Assembly: GCA_028865725.1 (NCBI GenBank)
Contig: JAGWJP010000001.1
Span: 207,143-271,142 of the forward strand
Direction of reading: 5' to 3'
Source: Patescibacteria group bacterium
GTDB taxonomy: Bacteria; Patescibacteriota; Minisyncoccia; UBA6257; JACRHW01
Length of the DNA: 64,000 nt
This document shows positions 1,580 to 64,000 of this stretch, one piece after another. The position numbers were made by a program, and so were the translations under genes. The first letter of the stretch is position 1, and every line of letters begins with the position of its first letter. The notes under the pieces are model-generated. The model was not told where the DNA came from. It did not search any database and worked only from the letters and a program-made list of their open reading frames with translations.

Positions 1580-2622
1580 AAGAGAACACGAATAATGGAT
1601 ATCAGAGCATACGAAAAAGGGTTTTGAAGAAAAGGGTTTTCAACCACTTCTTTTCAAAACCGCTCTTGTTTCCCGATGAGGCGGTTTTTAAAAATATGAC
1701 GATTGGCTATCCAGTTCTCCGACTTTGAAAGAGGGTGGAGAACTGGGAAGCGAATCAGTGACGGAGGAAGGACTGGTGTTTGAAAAGTGAACATATTTCG
1801 TAAATCGCATTTTCCCAGCTTATAAGGTGTAAACCATATAAGCGGGTTATCTCTTTTATGAGGAAGCAATTCTTCATAATAAGAAAATCAAACGATTTCC
1901 CTAAGTCCTCATGACATGCAAATGTGATGAGGCAGCGTTGAATGTAGAAAGACTCTTCCAAGTCTGTTCAACGTGTAATATCTATCTAGTTGGATACGGG
2001 TAATAGTAAGGGCACACGGTGGATGCCTAGACACTAAAAGGCGATGAAGGACGTAGCGTAGCTGCGATAAGTTTCGGGGAGGTGTGTAGCAACCTTTGAT
2101 CCGGAAATTTCCGAATGGGGCAACCCAGCACAGCAAACCTGTGTTACTTCGATATTAATAAATCGAAGGGCAAACCTGCTGAAGTGAAACATCTCAGTAA
2201 GCAGTGGAAAAGAAAAAATGTACGCGAATTTATACTGGCGTACAGGATGGCACATGTCATCGCGTCGTCAGTATAAATTCGCATTATTTCCTCAGTAGCG
2301 GCGAGCGAACAGGAAAGAGCCCAAACTTATTAGTCCTGAGTTTATCGAAGGATTGATAAGGGTTGTAGGGGAAAACACTCAATGTTTTAATTGTTCTGTA
2401 TCGGTCTTGTGCTTACAAGACTGGGAGAACAATTAGAACGTTGTAAAGAGTTACAAAATGAGTTCTTAGCTGAATCTGCCTGGAAAGCAGAGCCAAAGAG
2501 GGTGATGGCCCCGTAAGCGAAAAGAATTTCATCTCTTGTTTTTATCCCTGAGTACACCGACAAACGAAAGCGTTGGTGGAAGCATCCCACACTACAGGGA
2601 AAGGCTAAATACTTTTAGTGAT

Positions 2623-2659
<37 letters not shown>

Positions 2660-3748
2660 TAGGCCGGGAGGCCGATGAAATAGAACCTGAAACCGTGTGC
2701 TTACAAGGAATCGGAGCCCCCCACCATTTTTACTGATAGGCGTTGTTGTCTTCTTCTCTGTTGAAAAGAAGACAATAGCGTAAAATCAAAGATGCACTAT
2801 TGGTGAAAATGGTGGGGGGTGACGGTGTGCCTATTGAAGAATGAGTCAGCGAGTTATCCTGCATTGCTCGTTTAACCCCGCCCCACTTTTATGAAAAATG
2901 TTGTTGTACCAGCATTGAGTAATAGTGCATAACTGGTCTCTTTTGGTGGAGGAGATATCATGTTGTAGAAGTGGGGCGGGGGAAGGCAAAGCGAAAGCGA
3001 GTCTGAATAGGGCGTCGCATTTTCTAAGTTTATACGTTTTTGTCGCAAGACCGAACGTATAGACTTGGGATTTTGCAAGCAGTGCGGGCTAGACCCGAAG
3101 CCGGGTGAGCTTGCCGTGGCCAGGATGAAAGTCGACGAAAGTCGACTGGAGGTCCGAACCGGTTGGTTGTGCAAAACCTTCGGATGAGCTGCGGTAAGGA
3201 GTGAAAAGCTAATCGAACTCGGTAATAGCTGGTTCTCTCCGAAATAGTTCTAGGACTAGCCTTGGGACAACTACGTGTGGGGGGTAGAGCACTGGATGAA
3301 GGGTAAAGGGCTTCGGCTCGGCCGTTCAATCAAACTCCGAATACCCATACGACTATCCTGGGAGTCAGACAGTGGGGGCTAAGCTCCATAGTCAAAAGGG
3401 CAAGAACCCTGATGTTCATCTAAGGTCCCTAAGTTTTGACTAAGTGTAAAGGAAGTGACAAGCCGAAGACAGATAGGAGGTTGGCTTAGAGGTAGCCATC
3501 CTTTAAAGATTGTGTAACAACTCACTATCATATCCCTCACCTTTCGGTCGTAGATTTTTGTCAGATTAAGTTATTATTTTCTTATTTCTGATTATCAATG
3601 TACGTTCGAAAGGTGAGGGACTGGCTTGTTGCGCCGAAGATATATCGGGACTAAGTCAAATACCGAAGATAACAATTCCGTGCCTCACTTTTGTGTATAT
3701 ATGTATAAAATATAAGGAAATCTATCGAAATTAAGAAAAGGGATTTAT

Positions 3749-3885
3749 GTGGAGGTAGCTCAATTGGCAGAGCTTCAAGGAGGTGGTTCGTCATCATGCG
3801 ACGGGCAAGTGTGCGCACGCTTACCCGTAGCAGACACCTGCTAAAACCTTGAAGGTTCGAGGTTCGAATCCTCGCTTCCACACCA
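3749..3885 (+). ncRNA. tRNA-like element with genomically encoded CCA, embedded in the helix-45 intervening sequence of the 23S rRNA
   Basis: The acceptor stem is GTGGAGG/CTTCCAC with one G-U pair. U8 and A9 are present. The D-arm is GCTC-AATTGGCA-GAGC. The T-arm is CGAGG-TTCGAAT-CCTCG. Discriminator A and CCA follow. The anticodon-arm position (TCAAG...CTTGA) carries a ~68-nt structured insertion (AGGTG...CACCT, ACGGGCAAG...CTTACCCGT), so no normal anticodon loop exists. Confidence 0.5.
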
Positions 3886-5234
3886 GGGAAGCAGCGTCTT
3901 CCCTCCCTTTTCTTGGTTTTGATAGTGAAAATATATCCATAAAAGCGAGGCACGGTCTGGTAGGAGAGCATTCCAAGGGCGTTGAAGGTCAATCCGCGAG
4001 GAAGACTGGAGCGCTTGGAAGAGAGAATGCTGACATGAGTAACCGCAAGCACGATGAGAATTCGTGCCCCCGCAAATCCAAGGTTTCCGTGGCAATGGAA
4101 GTCAGCCACGGGTTAGGCGGCCCTAAGGCGATGGCGAAAGCCGCAGCTAATGGACAGCTGGTTAATATTCCAGCCCTCCGACATAACGTTCGATGGGGTG
4201 ACGAAAGAAATAAATGGGAGGGGATCAATGGTTATTCCCTCATTTGAGCTGAGAATGGTGTATTAGGAAAATCCGGTACACTATCTTTAATGATGGCATT
4301 CGGGCTTCGATGAAAGCGGGGATTATATTCTCGCGATTCCCGTGAAGAGCTTTCCAAGAAAACCCTCTAAGAATTAAGGTATGGCGGACCCGTACTGTAA
4401 ACCGACACAGGTGGATGAGGCGAGTAGCCTCAGGGGAACGGGTGATTTCTCGTTAAGGAACTCGGCAAAAAAGCGACCGTAACTTCGGGATAAGGTCTGG
4501 CTCACGCAAGTGAGCCCGCAGCTAAAGTTTCTCTGGCGACTGTTTACCAAAAACACAGCTCCCTGCTAACTCGTAAGAGGATGTATAGGGGGTGACGCCT
4601 GACCAATGCGAGAAGGTTAACGGTGGCGGTGTGTGCAGCACTTAGTTTGTAAGTAAGTAACGCTTATCAATTAAGTGCTGTGCATGCTAACTGCCCGAAG
4701 CCCTCGTCAATGTCGGCGATAACTATAATCGTCCAAAGGTAGCGCAACTCCTTGTCGGGTAAGTTCCGACGTGCATGAATGGCGTAACGACTGGAGAACT
4801 GTCTCAACGAGAAGCCCGGTGAAAGTGCGACACCAGCGAAGACGCTGGTACCCTATAGCGGGACGAAAAGACCCCGGGAGCTTTACTGTAGCTTGATATT
4901 GGGTTTACGTTCTAATTACGTAGCGTAGTGGGGAGAGGTTGAAGGTTTGATTTCGGTTGGACTGGACTCGTCAATGAAACACCCATTTTTTAGAATGTAT
5001 ATCCTAACCTTTGCGGAAAAACCGCAGGGGGACAGTGTCTGGTGGGCAGTTTTCGTGGGGCGCGATCCTCCCAAAGAGTAACGGAGGAGTTTATCAAGGT
5101 CAGCTTAGCCTGGATGGAAATCAGGCTGGACGTGTAAAGGCACAAGCTGGCTTAACGGCAAGGCTTACAAGCCGCGCCGATGCGAAAGCAGAACTTAATG
5201 ACCCGATGGCACTTTGTAGAAAGGCCTGAGACAT

Positions 5235-5270
<36 letters not shown>

Positions 5271-5401
5271 GGTCCGAGCGTCCCTAGCGACGACCAGGTT
5301 CGGCACCTCGATGTCGGCTCATCTTATCCTGGGACTGAAGAAGGCCCCAAGGGTTTGGCTGTTCGCCAATTAAAAAGATACGCGAGCTGGGTTCAAACCG
5401 T

Positions 5402-5850
5402 TAAGAGACGGACGTTATGAACATGAATCATATCGCTCGGTTTTTTAACAGTTTGAACCCCGAGGAAAAGACATGAGTCACGGCGGCATCTAAACATTTG
5501 TTTAGTGTAAAGTTAACTTATATCGGTAGAATCCACTCATCAATGGACAATACCGAGGGAACAATGCAAAACTCAAAATGCAAAATTATGAAGATATGAA
5601 AATGTGCATTTTCATATCTTCATTTTAAACTTTGAGATTTACTTTTTACATTTAAGTATCATGAAATGACACGATTGGCCCGTAGAGACTACACGTTAAC
5701 TATTCCTAAATAGAAAGACTCGAACTTTTAAGGGAAAGTTCGTTCGATCTTAAAGATTTAGGAAGAAAGATATAGTCCAATACACTTAGTAATAAGTGAA
5801 AACAACCACTGAGCTTTTATTCTTACGAGAGTTGAAGTGAAGTAATATGC
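5402..5850 (+). other. ~450-nt ORF-less insertion in 23S domain V, a candidate group I intron or large intervening sequence
   Basis: The conserved sequence GGGTTCAAACCGT ... GTGAGACAGGTTGGTCTCTATCTGC corresponds to E. coli GGGUUUAGAACGUCGUGAGACAGUUCGGUCCCUAUC at ~2586-2615. It is split by ~450 nt of AT-rich structured sequence containing a perfect 16-bp hairpin, GAAGATATGAAAATGTGCATTTTCATATCTTC. No ORF longer than 60 aa is present. Confidence 0.35.
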
Positions 5851-5992
5851 GTGAGACAGGTTGGTCTCTATCTGCTATAGGCGTTCGAAACTTGAGAGGA
5901 GTTGCCCTTTGTACGAGAGGATCAGGGTGAACGAGCCTCTGGTGTATCGGCTTTCATACCAATGGAATTGCCGAGTAGCTATTGCACGGAAG

Positions 5993-6025
<33 letters not shown>

Positions 6026-6195
6026 CACCTCAAGATTAGGTTTCGTGGTTCGACGCGAGTCGAACGAAAGACCCCTTGAAGATGACAAGGTTGATAGGCT
6101 TCAGGTGTAAGGCCAGTAATGGTTTCAGCCGAGAAGTACTAATAGGTCGAACTTCCCGTATCCAACTAGGTTGATATTGGAAAATTTATTTCTTT

Positions 6196-6418: not shown

Positions 6419-6538
6419 TCTCTTGGTGATTTAGCGTTCTAGGAACCACCTCTTCCCATTCCGAACAGAGTCGTGAAAATAGAAAGCCCTGATGATACTG
6501 CTTGCGCAAGCGAGGGGGAAAGTAAGGTTTGCCGAGAG
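6419..6538 (+). rRNA. rrf: 5S ribosomal RNA
   Basis: TCTTGGTGATTTAGCG...CCCATTCCGAACAGAG...GCCGAGAG. The CCGAAC loop C motif is present and the terminal helix pairs. It lies 250 nt downstream of the 23S. Confidence 0.75.
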
Positions 6539-37040: not shown

Positions 37041-37115
37041 CCGCCTGTAGCTCAGTCCGGTTAGAGCACGGAGCTTATATCTCCGCGGTCCCAGGTTCGA
37101 ATCCTGGCGGGCGGA
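37041..37115 (+). tRNA. tRNA-Ile (anticodon UAU), no CCA encoded
   Basis: CCGCCTG-TA-GCTC-AGTCCGGTTA-GAGC-A-CGGAG-CTTATAT-CTCCG-CGGTC-CCAGG-TTCGAAT-CCTGG-CGGGCGG-A. U8 and A9 are present. The anticodon loop has U33-UAU-A37. Confidence 0.7.
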
Positions 37116-37159
37116 CACATCTTTTTAAGTGAAACGAACACAGGCGTTATATCGAAGAT

Positions 37160-40954: not shown

Positions 40955-41068
40955 TGTGAAATAGGATGAATCGGTAATACATTATTATACGATACGAAAT
41001 ATGCATACGCAATAAGAAAAAAGCGCGTGTTACGATGCACACGCGCTTTGCGCCACACGGCGCTTTTT

Positions 41069-41917
41069 TTAGATCCACCCTCGCTTCCGTGCGAAGATGT
41101 ATCCGGCGGCGCCTATGCCGCCGAAGATCCCAACACCGAGGAGTAGCGGTACTACTCCTACGGCGAGGGCGAGCCCCACGGCGAGGATGAAGCCCGCGAC
41201 ACACGCCGCAGGCCTCCATCCCCACCGTTTGTAGACTTGCCACACCCCCACGCCCGCCGCAACGACGAGCGCGAGGGCGAGGATCGTCTTTCCGTAGAGC
41301 CAGATGGCGATGCCACTGGCCACAACGAGAAGTGCGATCCCCGTACGGCGCCACCCGAGTTTGCTCCCCACCCACGCGACGAATGCGAGGGCGAGGATCA
41401 CCCCAAGCAGCTGTACTGCCTGGGGCACCCACGTGGGCATGCGCATCTTCGGCGCGTGCCACGTGGGTAACACGGGCCAGGAAAACTTCTGGTTCCTGGC
41501 GACGGGCGCGGATTGCCCTCCATGGACCGCCTTCGCCGCACTCGCGCCGCCGCTGTGATGGCGGGTGGCAGGGGAGGCGACGGGTTTCGGTGTTTCCGTC
41601 CCGCCCGTCTTTTTTTCTTCCTCTTTTTTCTTTTCTTTTTTTGCCACCGGAGGGATGTAGCGTACCCGTCCGTTCGGGTTGGGCTTGCTCCATCTCCCTC
41701 CGGGTTTCTCATGAGAAAGCTCTTCGTCGTCTCGGGAGACGTACGTAGAGGCCTTCCCATGTATTCGTCCATCCGGCAGTTTCGCCGGCCGGACGATGTT
41801 CTCCATCGCCGCAGGCGAGGCGACAGCCTCGCAGGGGGTTTGCCCTCCATTTACCTCTGCCTTGCACGGCGGTGCGGAGATGAGACAAAAAAACAAAATC
41901 CAGATGAAAGTCTTCAT
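41069..41917 (-). CDS. hypothetical secreted/membrane protein encoded in a high-GC (~60%) segment
   Basis: Signal peptide MKTFIWILFFCLISAPPCKA, then a KKEKKKEEEKK linker, then four Ala/Gly/Val/Trp-rich transmembrane helices. GC content is sharply above the ~43-45% of flanking genes. Antisense ORFs here are Arg-rich artefacts. Confidence 0.5.
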   Translation of the reverse strand: MKTFIWILFFCLISAPPCKAEVNGGQTPCEAVASPAAMENIVRPAKLPDGRIHGKASTYVSRDDEELSHEKPGGRWSKPNPNGRVRYIPPVAKKEKKKEEEKKTGGTETPKPVASPATRHHSGGASAAKAVHGGQSAPVARNQKFSWPVLPTWHAPKMRMPTWVPQAVQLLGVILALAFVAWVGSKLGWRRTGIALLVVASGIAIWLYGKTILALALVVAAGVGVWQVYKRWGWRPAACVAGFILAVGLALAVGVVPLLLGVGIFGGIGAAGYIFARKRGWI

Positions 41918-42058
41918 AATAAAGACCTCCCATTTTCAATATACTAAGCCTATTTTATCATATATACATACATTTGTCAAATGCTCTTGACGTGAATTCC
42001 TTAAGCGCGCTACACTTTCTATTAGTTCTTTTTATGTGAGGAACAGGAGGTGCGAAGC

Positions 42059-49575: not shown

Positions 49576-50910
49576 ATGGACTATCATCTTGAAAAAAACT
49601 TTGCTTCCCACAAAACCAATTACTTCTTTTCAATTCTTGGACCACGATTCGAAGCAATGAACGAACTTATGGCCGATTCATTAAGTCGGCGTTTTGGAGG
49701 CGAATATAAACCAATTTATGTTTTCTCAAGTCATCCCAACAAGCATGTTAAGAAAGAAAACTATATCGTGCTAAACGAACGTGCTGATTCCCTTGAAAGA
49801 GAATTGAAAAAAAAAGTTGTTTATCCCCAAGAGTACGAGGATTTAAATGAAGAGTTTGCCAGATGCTCGCTTGTAAAAAAAATCTCCGAATCGTTATTTG
49901 CGAAGCAAACGCAAATACCTGTTTACTCTTTTACCACATCGTTTCTTAAATTCTCTGATCCGCGCTGGCTCCTATTGGGTCCATCGCCATCAATTTCAAC
50001 TTTTTATGACAACAAAATAGAGCAGTACAAGGTATTTAAACGTCTCGGACTATCAAGAAACGATGCTCGGATTTTTGAAAATAAAGAAGAATTGTTAAGA
50101 AAAAATAATATGTATCCTGGTTATATCACCGCTTCATATACTTCTGGAGGGAACGAAAGTGGATTAATTTACAGCAAAGAAATGCTGCATAATTTTCTTT
50201 CAAGACTTCGAGACGTGAATAAGAGGGGGCGATTTCTCGTTGCACACGTTTTTGAACACATTGTCGCCATGCCGAACGTTAACGCTATTGTAACTGGCGA
50301 GGACAAAACGAATGTTTTAATCATTTCAGATCAGATCATGCGAGGTACGCGATATTTAGGAAATGTCTACCCGACTTCTATTGCGCCAAAACATATTGAG
50401 CTGATAAAACAGGTTGCGATGAAAATCGGAAACTTTCTTTCACAAAAAGGATACCGTGGATTATTTGGCTGCGATTTCCTCATAAACGATAAGGGTAAAC
50501 TTGTTATTGTGGATTTAAATCCAAGACGGCAAGGCGGATATGTTTGTAATGCCTTGGCCTTAAAAACCGTCGGTATTAATCTTACTGATATTGAATTGAG
50601 CTGCGCTCTTCGCGAGGAAGTTTCAATTAACCTTGACTATGAAAAAATTCAATATCCGGGTACGTGGGCGCATTTGAAAGTTAAACCGTATTTTACTGGA
50701 CAAGACATCGTCCAAGAAATTGCGTATGGAGACGTACAGAAAATTTTTTCAAAGAGGGTTGGTCAATTCTACAGAACATTTTATCGGAAAGGGTCTTTAT
50801 TTATTGACGGTTACATTGGATATGTCGTAAGCGTTGGTAAAAAAAGAGAGAAAGTATTTCGTTTTGTTAATGAAACTTCTGATAAAATCTTAAGAGACAC
50901 GTTGCTTTGA
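49576..50910 (+). CDS. ATP-grasp superfamily ligase (carboxylate-amine ligase-like), AT-rich gene
   Basis: The C-terminal catalytic block GYRGLFGCDFLINDKGKLVIVDLNPRRQGG matches the ATP-grasp E/D-x-N-P-R signature. GC is ~35-37%, versus ~45% for rpoB. Confidence 0.6.
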   Translation: MDYHLEKNFASHKTNYFFSILGPRFEAMNELMADSLSRRFGGEYKPIYVFSSHPNKHVKKENYIVLNERADSLERELKKKVVYPQEYEDLNEEFARCSLVKKISESLFAKQTQIPVYSFTTSFLKFSDPRWLLLGPSPSISTFYDNKIEQYKVFKRLGLSRNDARIFENKEELLRKNNMYPGYITASYTSGGNESGLIYSKEMLHNFLSRLRDVNKRGRFLVAHVFEHIVAMPNVNAIVTGEDKTNVLIISDQIMRGTRYLGNVYPTSIAPKHIELIKQVAMKIGNFLSQKGYRGLFGCDFLINDKGKLVIVDLNPRRQGGYVCNALALKTVGINLTDIELSCALREEVSINLDYEKIQYPGTWAHLKVKPYFTGQDIVQEIAYGDVQKIFSKRVGQFYRTFYRKGSLFIDGYIGYVVSVGKKREKVFRFVNETSDKILRDTLL

Positions 50911-50919
50911 TTTAACAAT

Positions 50920-52002
50920 ATGAATCTACAAAAAATCATAAATCTTTCAAGCACACAGAAAACACCATTTTTTGTTTACGATAAAAAAAACGTAAAAAAG
51001 CAAATTAATAAAATTTTGACCGCGTTTCAAGACTATCCAAATTTTGAATTGCTCTATGCGGTAAAAGCGAATCACTCTAAATTCATTCTCGAGGAGGTTA
51101 AAAGAAATGGTTTGGGTATTGCAGTATCTTCATTGCAAGAGTTGGAATTGGCTGTAAAATATGGCTTTGAAAGTATTTCTTATACCGCTCCGTATATTTC
51201 TGCAGAAGTTATGCGGTTCTCAAAAAAACGAAAAATTGACATCAACTATAACAACCTTACGGAAATAAAACAACAAGATAAACTCATCGGTTTGCGAATC
51301 AACCCTGAAGTTGGCTGGTCTTATCTTAAGGACTATGCCGCGTCAGGAATAAATAGTCAATTTGGTATTCCTTTAGAAGAGGTAAAAATCGATCTTGCGA
51401 GAATCGTAAGAATCCAAATGCATACAAGCTCCGACTCTTATAAGATAAATCTTTTTATCAAAGCGCTGGAAAAATTATTAGATTTAGCTGCACAATGCCG
51501 AAATATAGATACAATAAATTTAGGGGGGGGAATTGCAACGCCAATATTGCGGGAAGATGATGAATTTGATATCGGACAATTTAGTAAAAGAGTCTTGCGA
51601 TTGGTAAATAAATTTAATCGTAAATATAATAAGCAGATAAAACTTCAATTTGAGCCAGGAAATTATATTACCAGAGAATCAGGCTATTACGTCTGCAGGA
51701 TTATGGCCAAAGAGAAAAAGTACAATAAAATTTTCTATTTTGTAGATGGGACCAAACATCACGTAAGAGGGCTTCATAATATTCAAAAAATTTTTTTTTC
51801 TCGAGACAGCATATCTGGAAAAAGGGGGTCGAATATCGTCGGTTGTACGTGTCAGAGATCGGATATTTTGGTCGATAATATTGTTATGCCAGAATTATCT
51901 ATTGGTGATTTAATCGTTATTCCTATGGCAGGAGCTTATTGTTCTGTGCAGGTAGATACTTTTCATTTATTGAATTCCCCTCGTGAACTTCAATTAAAAT
52001 AA
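50920..52002 (+). CDS. PLP-dependent decarboxylase, Orn/Lys/Arg/DAP decarboxylase family (alanine-racemase fold III)
   Basis: N-terminus TPFFVYDKKNVKKQINKIL...FELLYAVKANHSKFILEEVKRNGLGIAVSSLQELELA carries the PLP-lysine AVKAN block. At 360 aa it is shorter than LysA. Confidence 0.7.
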   Translation: MNLQKIINLSSTQKTPFFVYDKKNVKKQINKILTAFQDYPNFELLYAVKANHSKFILEEVKRNGLGIAVSSLQELELAVKYGFESISYTAPYISAEVMRFSKKRKIDINYNNLTEIKQQDKLIGLRINPEVGWSYLKDYAASGINSQFGIPLEEVKIDLARIVRIQMHTSSDSYKINLFIKALEKLLDLAAQCRNIDTINLGGGIATPILREDDEFDIGQFSKRVLRLVNKFNRKYNKQIKLQFEPGNYITRESGYYVCRIMAKEKKYNKIFYFVDGTKHHVRGLHNIQKIFFSRDSISGKRGSNIVGCTCQRSDILVDNIVMPELSIGDLIVIPMAGAYCSVQVDTFHLLNSPRELQLK

Positions 52003-58489: not shown

Positions 58490-58560
58490 TGCCGGATCGT
58501 CTAATGGTAGGACATCGCCCTCTGGAGGCGAGTATCTTGGTTCGAATCCAGGTCCGGCAG
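58490..58560 (+). tRNA. tRNA-Gln (anticodon CUG)
   Basis: TGCCGGA-TC-GTCT-AATGGTA-GGAC-A-TCGCC-CTCTGGA-GGCGA-GTAT-CTTGG-TTCGAAT-CCAGG-TCCGGCA-G. The U1-A72 pair and G73 are typical of bacterial tRNA-Gln. Confidence 0.8.
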
Positions 58561-60123
58561 CAATCGTGGATTTTTGGCATAGAGATGCTCTAAATCCTCT
58601 TGTTTTATCTGCTTTTTTCGAGGTTCTAACCGCTTGTGAATCTCTGCAACCTCTTTTGAGACTATTTCCATCGGCACAAGCGAATTTTCTAGGTCAATAC
58701 TGATGATCCTATCTTTTAGTATGAGGTTCTGACCGAGCGTTGAGAAAATGCGTTTTCTGATCTCCAAAGAGCCATTATTAAACTTGTCGGCGGCGTCTCT
58801 TACGAACTGAAGCATTTCATCGGCTGTTTTGATTTGTTTATCTACTCGGTCGCCCGTATCGTTGAATAGCTCCTCAAGACGTGCCTTATCACGCTTCAAT
58901 GGCGACATTTTGACGTTGAAGTCGGTATCGTCGATAAGTCCGCTTGCTCGCATATCAATAAGCCCGTCTATCTTTTTGAGACAGAGCTTGTATTCTTTCT
59001 GCTGGACGTCGATCACGGCGTTTCTCCCGACTGCTTCTTTGGCGAACTCATTCCTAAACCACTTGAGACCGAAAGCGTGGAACTCGGGCGGTATCCTCAA
59101 GCTCATGATTTTGCCTACGATCTGTTTTTCGAGTTTTTTCGTCTCAACGCATTTCTGTGAGCATTTCGGATTGATGCGTTTGGTGCAGTGATAATAGATA
59201 TAGTGATGTACCTTGCCGTTCTGCTGCCTTTTGAATTTTTCTTCGGCGGTAATTGATCCGTTGCATTCTCCGCATCGCATCATTCCCGTGAAATCAAAGA
59301 TATGGCTTTTCGGTCTCGGTTTTCCTTTTTTGCCCAGCAAGAATTGTATGCGATCGTATTCTTCCTCGGTGATCATCGGTTTATGGACGCCTTTGACCCA
59401 ATTTCCGCTACCCATCGGATACTCAAACATGCCGTAGTAAAACGGTCTGCTGAATATGTTGTACATCGTTGATCTTCCAAGTTTCTTGCCTTGTCGGGTT
59501 TTATAACCCCATTCTTCGTTTGCGATACGGAGAATATCAATAGGCGTGTAAGTTCCTGTAAGCATGAGATCGAACATGCGGCGTACTGTATCAAAGCGTT
59601 CAGGATCGGGCAGAATGGTCTTTGTGCCACGTTCCGCATATTTATCATTCATGTATCCCTGCGATGCAGGGGCGGGCATTACGCCCTTATCAACCTTGGC
59701 TCGCAGTCCACGCTTGGTGTTCTGGCTCAAGTCTCGCAGGAATTGGTTCGCCATGCCGAATTCAACGCTCATCATAAGAACATTGTCGGTTGGGTAATAG
59801 CTCTTCTCAAACGTTCGTATATGCTGAATGACGCCTTGCTGGAGCATCCAGTTGATATTGCCGCCGTCCACGGGATTGCGTGCCAGACGGTCTAGTTTCC
59901 AGCACAAGATGCCTTGAGCCTCGCCTTTGTAGATTCGCTCTATCATTTCGTTGAATACGGCTCTTCCTGGAGCTTTGGCGGACTTGGATTCAAAGAGTGG
60001 TGTTACGATCTCCAGCCCCTCTCGTTTTGCCAATCGTTCAAGCTCTGCAATCTGGGATTCGATTGAGGCGACTTGGCGATCTTCCGATTCGGACGATTTT
60101 CGAGCATAGAGGAAGTATTTCAT
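58501..60123 (-). CDS. large serine recombinase (resolvase/invertase-type integrase); C-terminal coding overlaps tRNA-Gln antisense
   Basis: MKYFLYARKSSESEDRQ... carries the catalytic Ser within YxRxS. ...GILCWKLDRLARNP... is also present, plus a large C-terminal recombinase domain. The ORF has no stop until 58501, so the last 19 codons are the reverse complement of the tRNA-Gln 3' half. Confidence 0.8.
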   Translation of the reverse strand: MKYFLYARKSSESEDRQVASIESQIAELERLAKREGLEIVTPLFESKSAKAPGRAVFNEMIERIYKGEAQGILCWKLDRLARNPVDGGNINWMLQQGVIQHIRTFEKSYYPTDNVLMMSVEFGMANQFLRDLSQNTKRGLRAKVDKGVMPAPASQGYMNDKYAERGTKTILPDPERFDTVRRMFDLMLTGTYTPIDILRIANEEWGYKTRQGKKLGRSTMYNIFSRPFYYGMFEYPMGSGNWVKGVHKPMITEEEYDRIQFLLGKKGKPRPKSHIFDFTGMMRCGECNGSITAEEKFKRQQNGKVHHYIYYHCTKRINPKCSQKCVETKKLEKQIVGKIMSLRIPPEFHAFGLKWFRNEFAKEAVGRNAVIDVQQKEYKLCLKKIDGLIDMRASGLIDDTDFNVKMSPLKRDKARLEELFNDTGDRVDKQIKTADEMLQFVRDAADKFNNGSLEIRKRIFSTLGQNLILKDRIISIDLENSLVPMEIVSKEVAEIHKRLEPRKKQIKQEDLEHLYAKNPRLLPDLDSNQDTRLQRAMSYH

Positions 60124-60302
60124 TTTTTGAGTGTAGTCTTTCATAAACTTAAACGGACGGTTCTGGCTATCCAATTCGCTTGCTCCAGAGGAGTAGCCAT
60201 ACTGGCAGAACCGCCCGTTTAGGGAGAGTATGGCTCAACAAAAAACCTCTGGGATTGAAAACGAATTTGGATAGCATATTGATTATACTATATTTTTGAA
60301 GA

Positions 60303-61526
60303 TTAGTGAAAGTCGATGCTTGGGTTGTAAGTTGGTTTTGGTTTCCAATTATGTCTCTCGAATTTATCAAGTGCTATCTGTATGTCGCTTACTATGTGAT
60401 CTGTGGGCAGATCTTTGAGATTTTCCAACGTGCGATCCAGTTTTACATGCATACGATTCCAACTTTTTGGTGTCCAATTTTTTTCAATTTTGTCTCTTAT
60501 TTTGCGAGCACCGCATTTGTTTACAAGGGTATACAGTGCAAAATCCTGCAAAAGCTTATTCAAAGAGTGGGCTTTTCTTTTGCCAGTGGAAATATAACTG
60601 TTAATCATTGCATCGAAGATTTCTTCTGGGGGTCTATCCATTTTTAAGGCGAGCTGACTTGCTGATCCGCCAATGATCTCTTGCCAGCTTTGGAGAACTG
60701 CCTTTTTGCACAATTCTTGATCAAAGATTTCCTCGAAGACAATGCCGCTTATTTTTCTGCTCAAGGCTTTTGTGAGGAAGGCATTAAGACTTGGCTGTTT
60801 TGTTAATCTTACCTCGAAACGCAGAATGTCCTGTTCAAAATCACTGGTGCGGATCAGTTCCTTTTCGAATTTAAGCTTATCCTTTTCTACAGCCCTATTT
60901 TTTGGTTCTTCCATTTCTTTGAGTTTATCGTAGAAAATGATGTTGTAAGACGATGCGTAAAAATACAACGCCTGACCCCCGTTTTCATAATGACGCATAT
61001 TGATGGCTTTGCTTTTTCCTACATCCGCTTTATAAAGCTCTGCAATTGCGTCTTGAGCCGTTAACGGGCTTGGAAGCGGGATATTCTTACCAAAGTGAGC
61101 CTCTATGACCATTGCCTTGCGTAGCGTGGTTTCAGTGGCTTCTATTCCCATAAATTGAAGTTGAGTCTTTAGAGTGCTGACAACTCTGCTAAAATCGTCG
61201 TTGGAAAGCTCTTGAAGGCTTTGCCTAAAAATCAATTTTGGGATCGAGAAACGAATGTGTAGAAAATAAATAGGCATATTATTTTCAAAGCGTTGGTATC
61301 CCGTAAGCGAGGGTTTGTAATTATTAACTTTTTTGTCCTCGGAGGTCATATTCTGCTTATATTTTTCATACTTGTTATGTCCATAAGCGAAATTTGAATT
61401 ATAGTTTTGGGGAGAAAACGCAGGCGTGAAGAAGCTCGGATTCGTTACCCTAAAGTCTGGATATTTTAGTTTTAGGGTTACCGTATCGAGCATGTAATCC
61501 TTCGCTTTGTTGTTTGGAGTATTCAT
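60303..61526 (-). CDS. hypothetical protein of the integrated element (possible replication-initiation/relaxase-type protein)
   Basis: 407 aa. It lies between the recombinase and the R-M genes. No catalytic motif can be assigned with confidence. Confidence 0.45.
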   Translation of the reverse strand: MNTPNNKAKDYMLDTVTLKLKYPDFRVTNPSFFTPAFSPQNYNSNFAYGHNKYEKYKQNMTSEDKKVNNYKPSLTGYQRFENNMPIYFLHIRFSIPKLIFRQSLQELSNDDFSRVVSTLKTQLQFMGIEATETTLRKAMVIEAHFGKNIPLPSPLTAQDAIAELYKADVGKSKAINMRHYENGGQALYFYASSYNIIFYDKLKEMEEPKNRAVEKDKLKFEKELIRTSDFEQDILRFEVRLTKQPSLNAFLTKALSRKISGIVFEEIFDQELCKKAVLQSWQEIIGGSASQLALKMDRPPEEIFDAMINSYISTGKRKAHSLNKLLQDFALYTLVNKCGARKIRDKIEKNWTPKSWNRMHVKLDRTLENLKDLPTDHIVSDIQIALDKFERHNWKPKPTYNPSIDFH

Positions 61527-61585
61527 TGTTGTCTTATTGAGCTAATTTTGTTGTCCCGAAATTTCGAGGAATACTCCGAACTTTT

Positions 61586-61783
61586 TTAACGCTTCTCTTT
61601 TTCCTCGACTTTAATGCGACCAAAAGAAGACTCGTCGTAAACGGCTTTATAGAGATTTACAAGGTTATTGGCTCGGTATGACGCTTCCTCATCTGAAAGC
61701 TCGATGCCGTAGCGTTCCTTGTAAAGTTTTTTGAATTCTTCTATGGCTTCTTTTGGCAACACGATAAAAAGTCCGCTATTCAC
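61586..61783 (-). CDS. hypothetical small protein
   Basis: 65 aa. Lies downstream of an inverted-repeat operator-like structure. Confidence 0.3.
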   Translation of the reverse strand: MNSGLFIVLPKEAIEEFKKLYKERYGIELSDEEASYRANNLVNLYKAVYDESSFGRIKVEEKEKR

Positions 61784-61870
61784 TTAGCAGGTTCTTGAAC
61801 GCCACGAGGCGACCTACTAAGTAAGCAACGGACTTACTTATCGGGCGTTCAAGATTATTTGTTGATTTTG

Positions 61871-61904
61871 AAAAAATAAAAAAACCAGCAGTTCATTCTG
61901 CTGG
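61871..61904 (-). terminator. rho-independent terminator for the 62117-62704 gene
   Basis: On the minus strand: CCAGCAG-AATGAA-CTGCTGG followed by TTTTTTT. Confidence 0.55.
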
Positions 61905-62116
61905 TCATTTATGTGTGGAATTAAAAAAGCCAAAACAATAAATACCAGTTCTAAAGTGAACCGCTATTCATTGTTCTGGCTTCCACAGCCCGCCTTTGCG
62001 GGTTACCTGTATGGCTCTAAAACAACGTGTCGCAACCGCATCCCGTGGTTGCAACGATTTATTTATCAAACCTTATTATTAATACTAGCGTATCCAAGCT
62101 ATTTCGTCAATGGGTG

Positions 62117-62704
62117 TTATTTGGTTTCGAAATGAATGACACCAGAATCATCAATTTTGAAGTAATTCAGTCTTCCGCAGGAACGGCAACGCCAGTATTT
62201 TTCTTCCTCAAATTTAACCATCAATGCTCTTATTTCCTCGTAAGAAATAAGCCCCTTTCCTTGAAAACGACCGCATTGACACACCCATTTGGGATTATTC
62301 GAATGAGCAAGAAATTTATTTATGGAATCTGGTATTTTGAAAACCTCGTCTTCTATTTCACGCAATAAAGCGGAAAGATATTCTCGATCTTTTAATTTAT
62401 AATCGGCTGGATAGCTATAAGCTTGCGAAAATACAGGGAGATCGTTTTCGTCAGTTTCAACTTCTACGTCCTCTATGTTGATTAACTCTATCGCTCCAGT
62501 TTTTTCTTCCACGTATTTTGCTAATTCCCAATTCCACGGAGCCGCACGTAACAAATCCCCATGTTCATCCAATAGCATTCTTTTTAATATACGTATCACT
62601 TCTTGGGATGACATCTTTGTCTTTTCCTGTGCGTATTTTAATAAGCTGTGAGCCTCCCTTTGTGGGTTGGGTTTGATTATCTTGCGTTTTGCGTAAATGG
62701 ACAT
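62117..62704 (-). CDS. hypothetical protein with C-terminal Cys4 zinc ribbon (CQCG...CRSCG)
   Basis: 195 aa. Transcribed divergently from the C5 methyltransferase. Confidence 0.45.
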   Translation of the reverse strand: MSIYAKRKIIKPNPQREAHSLLKYAQEKTKMSSQEVIRILKRMLLDEHGDLLRAAPWNWELAKYVEEKTGAIELINIEDVEVETDENDLPVFSQAYSYPADYKLKDREYLSALLREIEDEVFKIPDSINKFLAHSNNPKWVCQCGRFQGKGLISYEEIRALMVKFEEEKYWRCRSCGRLNYFKIDDSGVIHFETK

Positions 62705-62791
62705 AATGTTTTACAGAAATGCTTTTTTGGGTGTATTCTCAATAGTAAGCATAGTTACGTCAAAAATCAATTTGAGGAGTACTCCAAAAAA

Positions 62792-63781
62792 ATGACAAAA
62801 AAGAAATCGCCTCTCAAAAAGTACACTGTTACTTCTTTATTTTCGGGATGCGGGGGTCTTGATTTGGGTTTCAAGGGAGGTTTTTCCGTTTTGGGCAAAA
62901 AATATGGACAACGGTCTTTTGATATATTGTGGGCGAACGATTTTGATGAAAATGCTTGTTTCACTTTCTCAAAAAACTTTGGAGATCCAATAGTTTGCGG
63001 TGATATTGTCCAAATTCTTAGAGGAAATTATCCAGAATCTTCGAATCCAAAGATTCCAGAAAAGGCTGATGTGATTCTTGGTGGTTTTCCTTGTCAGGAT
63101 TTTAGTTTGGCTGGCAAACGAAAAGGATTTGCTGGGGGACGTGGCTTACTTTATCAAAGCATGGTTGAGGTGGTTAAAAGATTGCGACCAGCACTTTTTG
63201 TTGCCGAAAACGTAAGGGGTCTTTTAAGCATGAATAATGGGGCGGCGATAGCCACGATCATTAAAGATTTTTCTGATCTAGGGTATAACGTTGTTTATAA
63301 ACTACATCACGCTGCTGATTTCGGCGTGCCACAAAATAGGGAGCGTGTAATCATTGTTGGTACCGACAAAAAAAGGAATCTTCCAGCCTTCGAATATCCA
63401 AAATCAACTCATGATAACGAGGAGAGGGTAACGCTTTTAGACGCCATTGGGGATCTTGAAAACAAAAAAGAGGGCGAGTTGCCCAATCATTATTGGTCTA
63501 AAGCAAAAATGTTTCCTGGTACTCAAGGCAATACTATAACCAGCCCCGACAAGATTGGTCCGACTATGCGAGCGGAACACCATGGTAATATTGAATGGCA
63601 TTGGAATAAAAAAAGGAGGTTGTCCGCAAGAGAGGCGGCGAGAATACAAACATTTCCAGACGATTTTATTTTTTACCCCTCAACATCGAGTGCTTATAAG
63701 CAAATCGGAAATGCTGTTCCCCCTGTACTTGGTTGGCATATTGCTACAGCAGTAGAAAAATTTCTAAATAAATATCTCTAG
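62792..63781 (+). CDS. DNA (cytosine-5)-methyltransferase
   Basis: Motif I LFSGCGGLDLGF, motif IV GGFPCQDFSLAGKR, motif VI ENV, and motif X at the C-terminus. GAGGAG RBS. Confidence 0.9.
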   Translation: MTKKKSPLKKYTVTSLFSGCGGLDLGFKGGFSVLGKKYGQRSFDILWANDFDENACFTFSKNFGDPIVCGDIVQILRGNYPESSNPKIPEKADVILGGFPCQDFSLAGKRKGFAGGRGLLYQSMVEVVKRLRPALFVAENVRGLLSMNNGAAIATIIKDFSDLGYNVVYKLHHAADFGVPQNRERVIIVGTDKKRNLPAFEYPKSTHDNEERVTLLDAIGDLENKKEGELPNHYWSKAKMFPGTQGNTITSPDKIGPTMRAEHHGNIEWHWNKKRRLSAREAARIQTFPDDFIFYPSTSSAYKQIGNAVPPVLGWHIATAVEKFLNKYL

Positions 63782-63785
63782 TAAC

Positions 63786-64000
63786 ATGATTTACGTGAAC
63801 AAGAACGAAGTATCGGAAAACGATTTTCTTTCTCTTTTGGACAAGACGAAAGTTAAGTTGGAGAGTCTTTTGCAAACGAAGGAAAGACCGAAAGCGATGA
63901 ATGGCGTTGAGTTTGAAAATATGGTTTATGCCAATATGGTAACCGAAGCGGTCGGATCTGATTTTGATGGATATATCGAACAAACTGGTGCCCATGCGTT
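63786..64000 (+). CDS. hypothetical protein, 5' partial within window; candidate cognate restriction endonuclease
   Basis: ATG 5 nt after the methyltransferase stop, co-oriented. MIYVNKNEVSENDFLSLLDKTKVKLESLLQTKERPKAMNGVEFENMVYANMVTEAVGSDFDGYIEQTG... continues past the window end. Confidence 0.4.
   Translation, partial: MIYVNKNEVSENDFLSLLDKTKVKLESLLQTKERPKAMNGVEFENMVYANMVTEAVGSDFDGYIEQTGAHA

Follow-up and report, generated by a model that had tools for sequence, protein, structure and literature searches.

Why does the gene of a large serine recombinase (LSR) run into a tRNA gene in a member of the Patescibacteria, and do the genes behind it form a mobile element? The question is raised by the right-hand end (positions 58490 to 64000) of a 64,000-nucleotide (nt) stretch of DNA from a Patescibacteria group bacterium, hereafter called the window, where an initial annotation had proposed an integrative plasmid or phage-like element inserted at tRNA-Gln. 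We read a further 9.8 kb past the window end from the 260-kb source contig (L001/L123; GCA_028868355.1, a Patescibacteria metagenome-assembled genome [MAG]); the window numbering is carried on into this extension, and positions there are called window-equivalent. The sequences used for comparison are designated by L numbers. The comparisons do point to an integrative element: we consider it highly probable that the locus is, or was, a mobile element of the family described below, and probable that the window region makes up the left portion of a ~9.5- to 10.3-kb integrative element at the 3' end of tRNA-Gln(CTG), working by the mechanism that we propose. A 3.3-kb piece identical to this element is present in a second sample (L124).

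The tRNA-Gln(CTG), which would be the integration target, is complete and lies at 58490 to 58561 on the plus strand (ARAGORN; Rfam RF00005, 58.4 bits, E value of 6e-11). On the minus strand, the ORF (open reading frame) of an intact recombinase gene extends from 58501 to 60174 (557 amino acids [aa] from a TTG at 60174); counted from the ATG at 60123, the gene (58501 to 60123) encodes 540 aa, one fewer than initially annotated. The assignment as an LSR stood, with three Pfam domains (Resolvase PF00239, 3.5e-19, matched from profile position 2; Recombinase PF07508, 2.9e-09; Zn_ribbon_recom PF13408, 1.7e-08), a match to the PHROG 95 integrase (3.8e-69), and a match in the PDB to the C-terminal structure of the A118 integrase (1.9e-08). 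The peptides Y-A-R-K-S-S and L-D-R-L-A-R, which we take to be the canonical LSR motifs with the catalytic serine and arginines, can be read directly in the translation. The gene shares 61 nt with the tRNA, namely 19 sense codons and the stop codon (58501 to 58503), and the recombinase tail L-P-D-L-D-S-N-Q-D-T-R-L-Q-R-A-M-S-Y-H is the antisense of the tRNA, starting at the tRNA 3' end and reaching the D-loop, just as the initial annotation had noticed for the last 19 codons. At this position, no gene is listed among the called genes of the GCA_028868355.1 record, probably owing to the tRNA overlap; annotators may easily overlook such elements wherever a recombinase overlaps a tRNA. A 16-nt inverted repeat with 94% complementarity, found by repeat search between the stop of the next gene and the recombinase start (60150 to 60221), may be a terminator or an operator.

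Could the overlap be an accident of ORF extension, and the genes behind it ordinary host genes that happen to lie beside a tRNA? Among 13 independent related elements with sequence beyond the recombinase stop, 10 show an antisense overlap with a tRNA at the 3' end of the LSR gene, and because it recurs in this way, the overlap is more than chance. Its length ranges from 13 nt to the entire tRNA in the elements measured, and the tRNAs concerned are Gln-CTG (window, L045, and L005), Gln-TTG (L013, L072, L113, and L115), Asn-GTT (L002), Ser-GCT (L010), and Glu-CTC (L117). The other three comprise L103, which has no tRNA, and a sub-group of the family in which the recombinase gene ends within the 5' part of a same-strand GTPase gene, ychF (L006:8830-9010 and L098:13790-13970).

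The recombinase has more than 6,000 homologues at an E value of ≤1e-30. The closest 120 of these are 53 to 85% identical and end in ...Y-S-x-S/N-P-x-L-L, and 54 of the closest 120 contain a [DE]SN-type tripeptide within their last 32 residues, where less than one would be expected by chance (a rough estimate); read antisense, the T-loop GTTCGAATC of the tRNA gives D-S-N. Given the number of homologues and the many tails with an antisense-tRNA signature among the closest 120, elements of this kind are not rare in this lineage, contrary to what had been assumed initially. In cultured phages and plasmids (INPHARED and PLSDB), the closest LSR is at most 27% identical.

We then looked for the same site in related genomes. 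With the neighboring FtsX protein as a query against species-representative genomes, we found four close relatives (FtsX, 75 to 77% identical). In two of the related Parcubacteria genomes (L019 and L020), the tRNA-Gln(CTG) lies ~1 kb downstream of ftsX, and the genes behind it are unrelated and include no recombinase; such empty sites had been suggested as a check in the initial annotation. In L045, a recombinase of 547 aa stands behind the tRNA-Gln(CTG); it aligns gaplessly to ours at 85% identity, and its tail is the same tRNA-antisense reading. The L045 Rep-like protein is only 27% identical to the 407-aa protein of the window, and the one further neighbor gene visible before the contig end (2 kb visible) is unrelated to the window's genes. 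The tRNA-Gln is identical over all 72 nt in L045 (occupied) and L019 (empty), and the flanks part 1 nt past the tRNA end. The site at one and the same tRNA-Gln is thus polymorphic, empty in L019 and L020 and occupied in L045 and the window. A reading of these genes as host genes would fit with a right attachment site (attR) that was not found and a G+C content that is only mildly different, but it is refuted by the comparative data, i.e., by these empty sites, by the overlap in 10 of 13 elements, by the peptide signature in 54 of the closest 120 homologues, and by the same core lying beside different genes at ychF and at further tRNAs; we give it practically no credence.

Two further observations concern the tRNA itself. 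About 50 nt downstream of the empty-site tRNA of L019, a 17-nt copy of the tRNA-Gln 3' end, AATCCAAGTCCCGCAGC (L019:11995-12015), fits the L020 tRNA better than L019's own and looks like the scar of a past element. In the window, the tRNA-Gln T-stem (58539 to 58555) carries a U50-G64 wobble (CTTGG/CCAGG), where L045, L019, L020, and L005 have a perfect CTTGG/CCAAG; this could be what is left of a hybrid tRNA, assuming a T-loop crossover, or a plain mutation.

By sequence comparison, the element belongs to a large family present in metagenome contigs and MAGs, whose taxon-labelled members are nearly all Patescibacteria. We compared the gene contexts of six homologues of the Rep-like protein and three homologues of the recombinase. 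The nine contexts share a layout in which cargo, mostly restriction-modification (R-M) genes, occupies one strand and a core occupies the other. The order of the core is a large ORF of unknown function (360 to 793 aa), often a DUF5659 protein, a ~60-aa LPKEAIEEFKKLY... protein, rep, sometimes an HTH_17 protein, and the recombinase. L002, L005, L010, L013, and L113 carry this core (~60-aa gene, Rep-like gene, and LSR gene, mostly with the large ORF in front) at different tRNAs, and their host genes and cargo mostly differ. The host genes beyond the recombinase vary (DnaG/sigma-70, IF-2, DNA polymerase III tau, and MurE/PBP), FtsX being found in both L005 and the window. Cargo types are a type III-like methyltransferase with ResIII, a methyltransferase-Mrr fusion, and a cytosine-5 (C5) methyltransferase with a restriction endonuclease and Vsr; L010 is an exception, in which VKOR and thioredoxin-family genes adjoin the core. 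In L115 and L117, the LSR and the ~60-aa gene are kept and other proteins fill the Rep slot (smaller proteins of unknown function in L115 and a tyrosine-recombinase-like protein in L117); because of these two, the recombinase clade is broader than the Rep family. Since R-M genes are part of the cargo in most elements examined, the family is probably a main vehicle for the exchange of defense systems among these small genomes. Our full-text literature searches found no description of such elements. As a separate observation, the host DnaB helicase of L115 (L115:14922-17567) has an intein that bears a LAGLIDADG domain.

In the window, the small core gene lies at 61586 to 61783 on the minus strand and encodes 65 aa (LPKEAIEEFKKLYKERYG... 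family). It has no Pfam or PHROG match, its BLASTP relatives are small ORFs of L003, L005, L013, L113, L115, and L120, and the gene stands directly upstream of rep in most elements examined. In the two elements with a C5-methyltransferase/endonuclease/Vsr cassette, the ~60-aa family occurs twice, once upstream of rep or in the core and once right after Vsr (second copies at L001:5849-6040 and L115:4915-5106), and the protein could be a regulator that travels with the R-M cassette. A tandem second element, suggested by the 63-aa paralogue in our locus, was rejected on finding that L115 has the same cassette of methyltransferase, endonuclease, Vsr, and small ORF with its own copy. The slot next in the core is filled in the window by a 195-aa protein (62117 to 62704, minus strand, divergent from the methyltransferase gene), known from the ORF list and initially annotated as a divergent Zn-ribbon protein; it does have a C-terminal CxC...CxxC zinc-ribbon-like motif. 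It has no match in Pfam, PHROGs, NCBIfam, or PADLOC and no similarity to the large ORFs of the sister elements, and in L002, L005, L006, L013, and L113 a protein of 360 to 793 aa with no known function stands in its place.

Where would the crossover take place? One bound is given by the divergence of L045 and L019 just past the tRNA end. The other comes from L072 and L103, which are 90% identical in DNA sequence across the recombinase and rep genes, the identity stopping inside the last 7 nt (CCAGCCA) of the L072 tRNA-Gln. L103, an 8.3-kb metagenome contig, has at 2094 to 2283 a degenerate T-arm-like sequence where the tRNA would be, and it is a candidate for the form with an element attachment site (attP), unintegrated or differently integrated. 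Because L103 is read in this way, the crossover would fall within the last few nt of the tRNA. A scan of 10 junctions for dyad symmetry peaked at a CA two bases before the discriminator (8.1/20 matches, versus ~5 elsewhere), and in the window the sequence TGGATT is found 7 nt from the CA center on both arms. We infer that the crossover occurs at or near the CA dinucleotide at 58558 and 58559, just before the discriminator G at 58560. The left junction (attL; no strand assigned) would then span 58536 to 58583, with the host tRNA arm on the left and the element arm AATCGTGGATTTTTGGC on the right. With a crossover at this CA, the tRNA would stay host encoded, the element supplying only the discriminator and the trailer; the last ~19 codons of the integrated recombinase gene would be host DNA, and no long direct repeat would be expected.

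A model with a crossover in the T-loop, derived from a repeat in the sister element L013, was set aside in favor of the extreme 3' end after the L072/L103 comparison. In L013, and in no other element, 19 nt of the tRNA end are repeated at a distance of 11 kb; given this repeat and the L019 remnant, the crossover may lie deeper in the tRNA in some members. Two assemblies of this sister element, L013 and L015, are identical apart from a 63-bp indel bordered by CGCTTCG repeats (L013:1882-1945). This indel lies just inside the distal end and adjoins the 19-nt repeat, and an inverted 16-nt copy of the T-arm is found 124 nt further in.

The second core protein bears on how the element would be maintained. 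Its gene (60303 to 61526, minus strand) is the 407-aa ORF in which the initial annotation had seen a possible Rep or relaxase, and we describe its product as a Rep_trans/Phage_CRI-like rolling-circle initiator (or relaxase). The affinities to Pfam are below threshold (Phage_CRI, 3e-4, 21.1 bits versus a cut-off of 21.7; Rep_trans, 6e-3, 16.7 versus 29.6), and there is no match in PHROGs, NCBIfam, or PADLOC. A fold comparison matched the protein to Rep_trans, including the crescent-shaped beta-sheet of the catalytic fold, and it alone succeeded, as the family profile gave only spurious weak matches to PDB sequences. Phage_CRI was matched at an E value of ≤0.01 by 5/32 aligned homologues and, above the cut-off (30.1 versus 21.7 bits), by one of ten distant representatives. 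Residues G184, Y199-D-K201, and R236-x-E238 are invariant in the family and lie on predicted beta-strands, as the Y-x-K and R-x-E motifs do in Rep_trans; they are candidate counterparts of G180, Y191-x-K193, and R212-x-E214 of RepDE, whereas an equivalent of R189, from the R-x-Y-x-K context of the catalytic tyrosine, was not identified. Y199 is likely the nucleophile. The protein also has an extra C-terminal helical domain of ~110 aa. We conclude that it represents a distinct family of the Rep_trans/Phage_CRI fold and not a member of either Pfam family. The family is large: the 407-aa protein has 89 word-indexed homologues, and the profile search gave at least 1,469 clusters (50% identity) at an E value of ≤1e-3 and 682 at ≤1e-30, with a length of 365 to 410 aa nearly throughout. 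No relatives were found in IMG/VR, PLSDB, or INPHARED.

As Phage_CRI, the domain of the filamentous-phage replication protein G2P, is the best Pfam affinity, the element might be a small temperate single-stranded DNA (ssDNA) phage, for instance an inovirus-like prophage, with replication of the phage genome carried out by its gpII-like protein. The size of ~10 kb and the integrated state would fit, as would a 115-aa membrane protein with weak holin/hemolysin-like PHROG matches. We nevertheless regard a prophage as very improbable, since neither the element nor its sisters contain a morphogenesis ATPase (pI/Zot), coat, or capsid protein recognizable by Pfam or PHROGs, the Rep family has no relative in IMG/VR or INPHARED, and the variable part is dominated by R-M genes. 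The phage-like nature considered in the initial annotation is therefore not supported.

If the 407-aa protein initiates replication, where would it nick? A motif at 61511 to 61581 (minus strand), immediately 5' of the rep ATG, is a candidate double-strand origin or Rep-binding site. In the window it reads GGAGTATTCC-TCGAAATTTCGGG-ACAACAA, with outer arms GGAGTATTC and GAATACTCC that bracket the rep start codon. The family form of the motif, GGAGTATTCC-CCGAAATTTCGGG-ACAACAA followed 20 to 25 nt later by (A/G)TG-AATACTCC, directly precedes the rep start in 18 distinct loci; the Rep proteins encoded there share only 27 to 65% identity. The inner palindrome is preserved by changes in both arms in L002 (CCAGAAATTTCTGG) and L013 (CTAAATTTAG), and the outer arms covary too in L013. 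A metagenome-wide scan gave 55 matches to the motif; 14 adjoin a rep gene, all with the extended motif or a close variant, and the other 41 lack the extended motif and represent chance. The exact 18-mer had no match in IMG/VR. We propose the motif as a double-strand origin because in plasmids of the pT181 type the nick and binding sites lie in an inverted repeat located at the rep 5' end (PMC4797284). On balance, we lean toward a 407-aa protein that replicates the excised circle from this conserved motif.

The same protein may also be viewed as mainly a MobT-type relaxase, with the motif as a transfer origin (oriT) and transfer of the excised element by a conjugation or competence apparatus encoded elsewhere, which would make the element an integrative and mobilizable element (IME). 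Rep_trans relatives are the MobT relaxases of Tn916, ICEBs1, ICESt3, and many streptococcal IMEs, and some of them do both jobs (PMC5704250), so the two roles are compatible; the fold match to Rep_trans and the lack of any other recognizable transfer function, as is typical of IMEs, would agree with this. We hold it to be unlikely as the main role, since the sequence affinity is nearer to Phage_CRI than to MobT and no coupling protein, type IV secretion system, or FtsK/TraB-like gene was found in any element examined (the host genomes were not searched).

Behind the small core gene, a 333-nt non-coding stretch (61784 to 62116) is strongly structured (z = -7.1 when folded as ssDNA). It contains a hairpin at 61793 to 61854 (z = -5.3), a terminator-like hairpin at 61883 to 61906, and three more stems. 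The first hairpin is the inverted repeat initially reported behind the small ORF; the repeat is present, with perfectly complementary arms of 11 nt (61793 to 61803 and 61844 to 61854) and not of 12. The second, found in a terminator scan with a T-run on the minus strand, is the terminator that had been noted. No Rfam family matched the stretch above threshold, and a role as a single-strand origin is speculation.

The cargo begins with a type II C5 DNA methyltransferase of 329 aa (62792 to 63781, plus strand, with the ORF open from 62648), whose identification had been right (PF00145, 1.7e-78; TIGR00675, 2.7e-73; PADLOC MTase_II, 5.6e-99). The ORF that runs off the window had been presumed to be the endonuclease, 5 nt downstream; its ATG at 63786 is in fact 4 nt past the methyltransferase stop, and the gene (63786 to 64000 in the window, plus strand) continues to window-equivalent 64835 and encodes 349 aa. 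It is identified as a type II restriction endonuclease because of its PADLOC match (REase_II PDLC03508, 6.8e-42); its N-terminal 71 aa have no homologues, and it has no BLASTP similarity to the positionally equivalent enzyme of L115. A Vsr gene follows (window-equivalent 64832 to 65299; Pfam Vsr, 3.3e-19; PADLOC Vsr, 3e-15). The three genes are 4 nt apart or overlapping, and from these matches they make up a complete type II R-M and Vsr cassette. The extension then holds two small ORFs, one of which is the paralogue of the 65-aa gene, a TM0106-family RecB/Cas4-like nuclease of 486 aa (TIGR03491, 2.4e-90), and downstream of it ORFs of 149, 130, and 115 aa. The 149-aa gene overlaps the start of the 130-aa gene (L001:3448-4283, window-equivalent 67244 to 68079), and its product matches PHROG 5737 (7.7e-09) and the PADLOC candidate-defense model PDC-M28A (3.5e-05); these two genes may be a small two-gene defense candidate. 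A P-type cation ATPase gene at window-equivalent 68839 to 71367 is host-like, as is a methyltransferase gene accompanying it.

We propose the following mechanism. The LSR would catalyze integration, with the attP inside the 3' end of its own gene; once the element is inserted, the recombinase reading frame would continue beyond its border and cross the tRNA, which is encoded on the other strand. As the crossover would fall in the last few tRNA nt, the tRNA would be left intact, and the reconstructed attP would read ...CCACGATTGC joined to the distal end of the element. After excision, the Rep_trans-like protein would nick at the palindrome and ACAACAA motif upstream of its own start codon and initiate rolling-circle replication of the circle, possibly serving as well as a relaxase for transfer. 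The variable cargo (type II C5 methyltransferase, restriction enzyme, Vsr, TM0106-type RecB-like nuclease, and small genes) would help to stabilize the element and to protect the host. Within this proposal, the gene identities, the Rep fold, the conservation of the motif, the empty sites in relatives, and the recurrent overlap of LSR genes with tRNAs are observed, and we infer where the crossover lies, that the motif acts as an origin, that an excised form replicates, and that this copy is active.

One may go further and imagine a recombinase clade adapted to use the universally conserved acceptor/T-arm end of tRNAs as its chromosomal attachment site (attB), its own 3' coding region (...SP-R-L-L) serving as a mirror-image half-site. 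Such a clade would hop between tRNA species (Gln, Asn, Ser, and Glu), integration would exchange the C-terminal tail of the recombinase for one encoded by the antisense tRNA, which could bias the direction of the reaction without a separate directionality factor, and combined with the Rep_trans-like replicon it would form a native integrate-and-replicate toolkit for Patescibacteria. We offer this extension as a doubtful idea.

Several observations weigh against the proposed integrative element. Although the initial annotation had suggested extending the contig to find the right end, the 15 kb next to the tRNA yielded no attR, no repeat of the tRNA end, and no pseudo-tRNA arm. No distal copy of the tRNA 3' end turned up in searches for exact matches or matches with 3 mismatches, blastn-short with the tRNA and its flanks against 10 to 15 kb gave nothing significant, and neither a gapped local alignment for a pseudo-tRNA arm nor an ungapped scan with a 46-nt attL scored above shuffled sequence. 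The one candidate from a half-site pattern search, at window-equivalent ~68.2 kb, is weak and at noise level, and we do not rely on it. The G+C content is only mildly below that of the host (~0.38 to 0.41 versus ~0.44), with no sharp boundary. The genes downstream of the empty sites in L019 and L020 have no orthologues in the window and its extension (tblastn), so the boundary cannot be placed by synteny; it is set by gene content alone, between the 130-aa gene and the ATPase gene (68.1 to 68.8 kb), which gives a length of about 9.5 to 10.3 kb. Among the contigs examined, there is no circular or excised form and no contig with a terminal overlap; L016 and L017, considered as circles, were rejected, both being truncated integrated copies. 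No conjugation or packaging genes were recognized in the element. For the replication functions, R140, D142, and D146 of Rep_trans have no obvious invariant counterparts in the Rep-like family, the hairpin of the origin-like motif is not unusually stable (z = -1.7), this motif could be a translational hairpin or an operator (translational, transcriptional, or autoregulatory), since it brackets the rep start, and conservation of the structured spacer does not extend to the sister elements.

Some of these points would be explained if this copy were a decayed, immobilized island that was once integrated by the recombinase, has lost its attR and distal end, and has become fixed as a defense island. 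The absence of an attR or tRNA-end repeat within 15 kb, whereas L013 shows a clean 19-nt repeat 11 kb away, and the identical sequence in another sample, which suggests a stable chromosomal copy, speak for decay. Against it, the recombinase is gapless and 85% identical to its L045 homologue, the Rep-like gene is full length with all invariant residues kept, and the origin-like motif is intact. Most sister elements likewise lack long repeats, as expected if a serine recombinase needs only a 2-bp crossover. We therefore think decay rather unlikely, if less so than the other alternatives, and retain the integrative element with the mechanism proposed above.

Elsewhere in the window, a 23S rRNA match (1994 to 6163) spans 4,170 nt versus the 2,925-nt model, i.e., with ~1.2 kb inserted, and is followed by a 5S rRNA at 6421 to 6538; no ORF of ≥120 aa that would obviously resemble a homing endonuclease lies within the insert. 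A tRNA-Ile with the anticodon TAT (UAU) at 37041 to 37116 adjoins a divergent tRNA-Ser(GGA). The G+C content has a spike of 0.587 at 41 to 42 kb (41000 to 42000), where three ORFs overlap on the minus strand, and a trough of 0.35 to 0.36 at 50 to 52 kb (50000 to 52000), over ATP-grasp and Orn/DAP decarboxylase genes.

How does the element compare with known systems? It would work like an integrative rolling-circle replicon or an IME, and it differs from its nearest described relatives in concept in that its serine recombinase is paired with tRNA 3' ends, its Rep proteins form a separate family, and its hosts are Patescibacteria. As a rule, tRNA 3' ends are taken by tyrosine integrases and serine integrases land inside genes; this rule of thumb is broken here by an abundant LSR clade that serves tRNA 3' ends and whose attP would be embedded in the end of its own gene. 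The large serine integrases A118, Bxb1, phiC31, CcrA/B, and XisF have the same Resolvase, Recombinase, and zinc beta-ribbon domains, long helical C-terminal part, and catalytic-serine motif, and they integrate within protein-coding genes or repeat elements. The window clade differs from them in its use of tRNA 3' ends and in a proposed attP that overlaps its own gene end, and it is at most 27% identical to those in INPHARED and PLSDB. Actinomycete elements of the pSAM2 type, ~11 kb in size and integrated at the 3' end of a tRNA, excise, multiply by means of a rolling-circle initiator, and integrate again; our element has neither their tyrosine integrase and Xis nor their HUH-type Rep and TraB-like transfer protein. 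The large unannotated replication family provides testable parts, namely rep with its ~70-bp motif and the integrase with its tRNA attB, which could seed replicative or integrative vectors for bacteria of the candidate phyla radiation, for which, to our knowledge, genetic tools are almost non-existent.

In the survey of LSRs by Durrant et al., tRNA is never mentioned. The closest counterparts of the Rep-like protein by fold are the Rep_trans initiators of the pT181 family (RepD/RepDE) and RepSTK1 (PDB 4cwc and 4cij; PMC4797284), from which it differs by an identity of 11 to 13%, a Rep_trans score of 16.7 bits below the cut-off of 29.6, the extra C-terminal helical domain of ~110 aa, the lack of an evident R140/D142/D146 block, and its place in an integrated element and not on a free plasmid. 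Filamentous-phage gpII (Phage_CRI) is nearest at the sequence level, and some members of the family score above the gathering threshold, while the window protein falls just below it (21.1 versus 21.7) and has no phage structural or assembly genes alongside; Phage_CRI shares its motif arrangement with Rep_trans (Carr et al.). The pleolipovirus SNJ2, considered here with the Rep-Arvir family, has a structurally Rep_trans-like Rep with a conserved hairpin origin beside rep (PMC13107129). It resembles our element in being integrated, in having a Rep distantly related to Rep_trans, and in an arrangement that changes on excision and circularization, and differs in being an archaeal virus with a tyrosine-type integrase, virion genes, and a different Rep family. 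There is also a likeness to the Firmicutes IMEs and integrative and conjugative elements with Rep_trans/MobT proteins (Tn916/ICESt3 superfamily and streptococcal IMEs), some with serine recombinases, which are small and integrated, combine a site-specific recombinase with a Rep_trans-type nicking protein for replication, transfer, or both, and bear cargo such as R-M or toxin-antitoxin genes (PMC5704250). According to the same review, dispensable protein genes are the targets of IMEs with a serine recombinase and are disrupted by the insertion, and the IMEs listed at gene ends use tyrosine integrases (PMC5704250). In contrast, the element described here combines a serine recombinase at tRNA 3' ends with a separate Rep family that is mostly invisible to Pfam, in Patescibacteria hosts.

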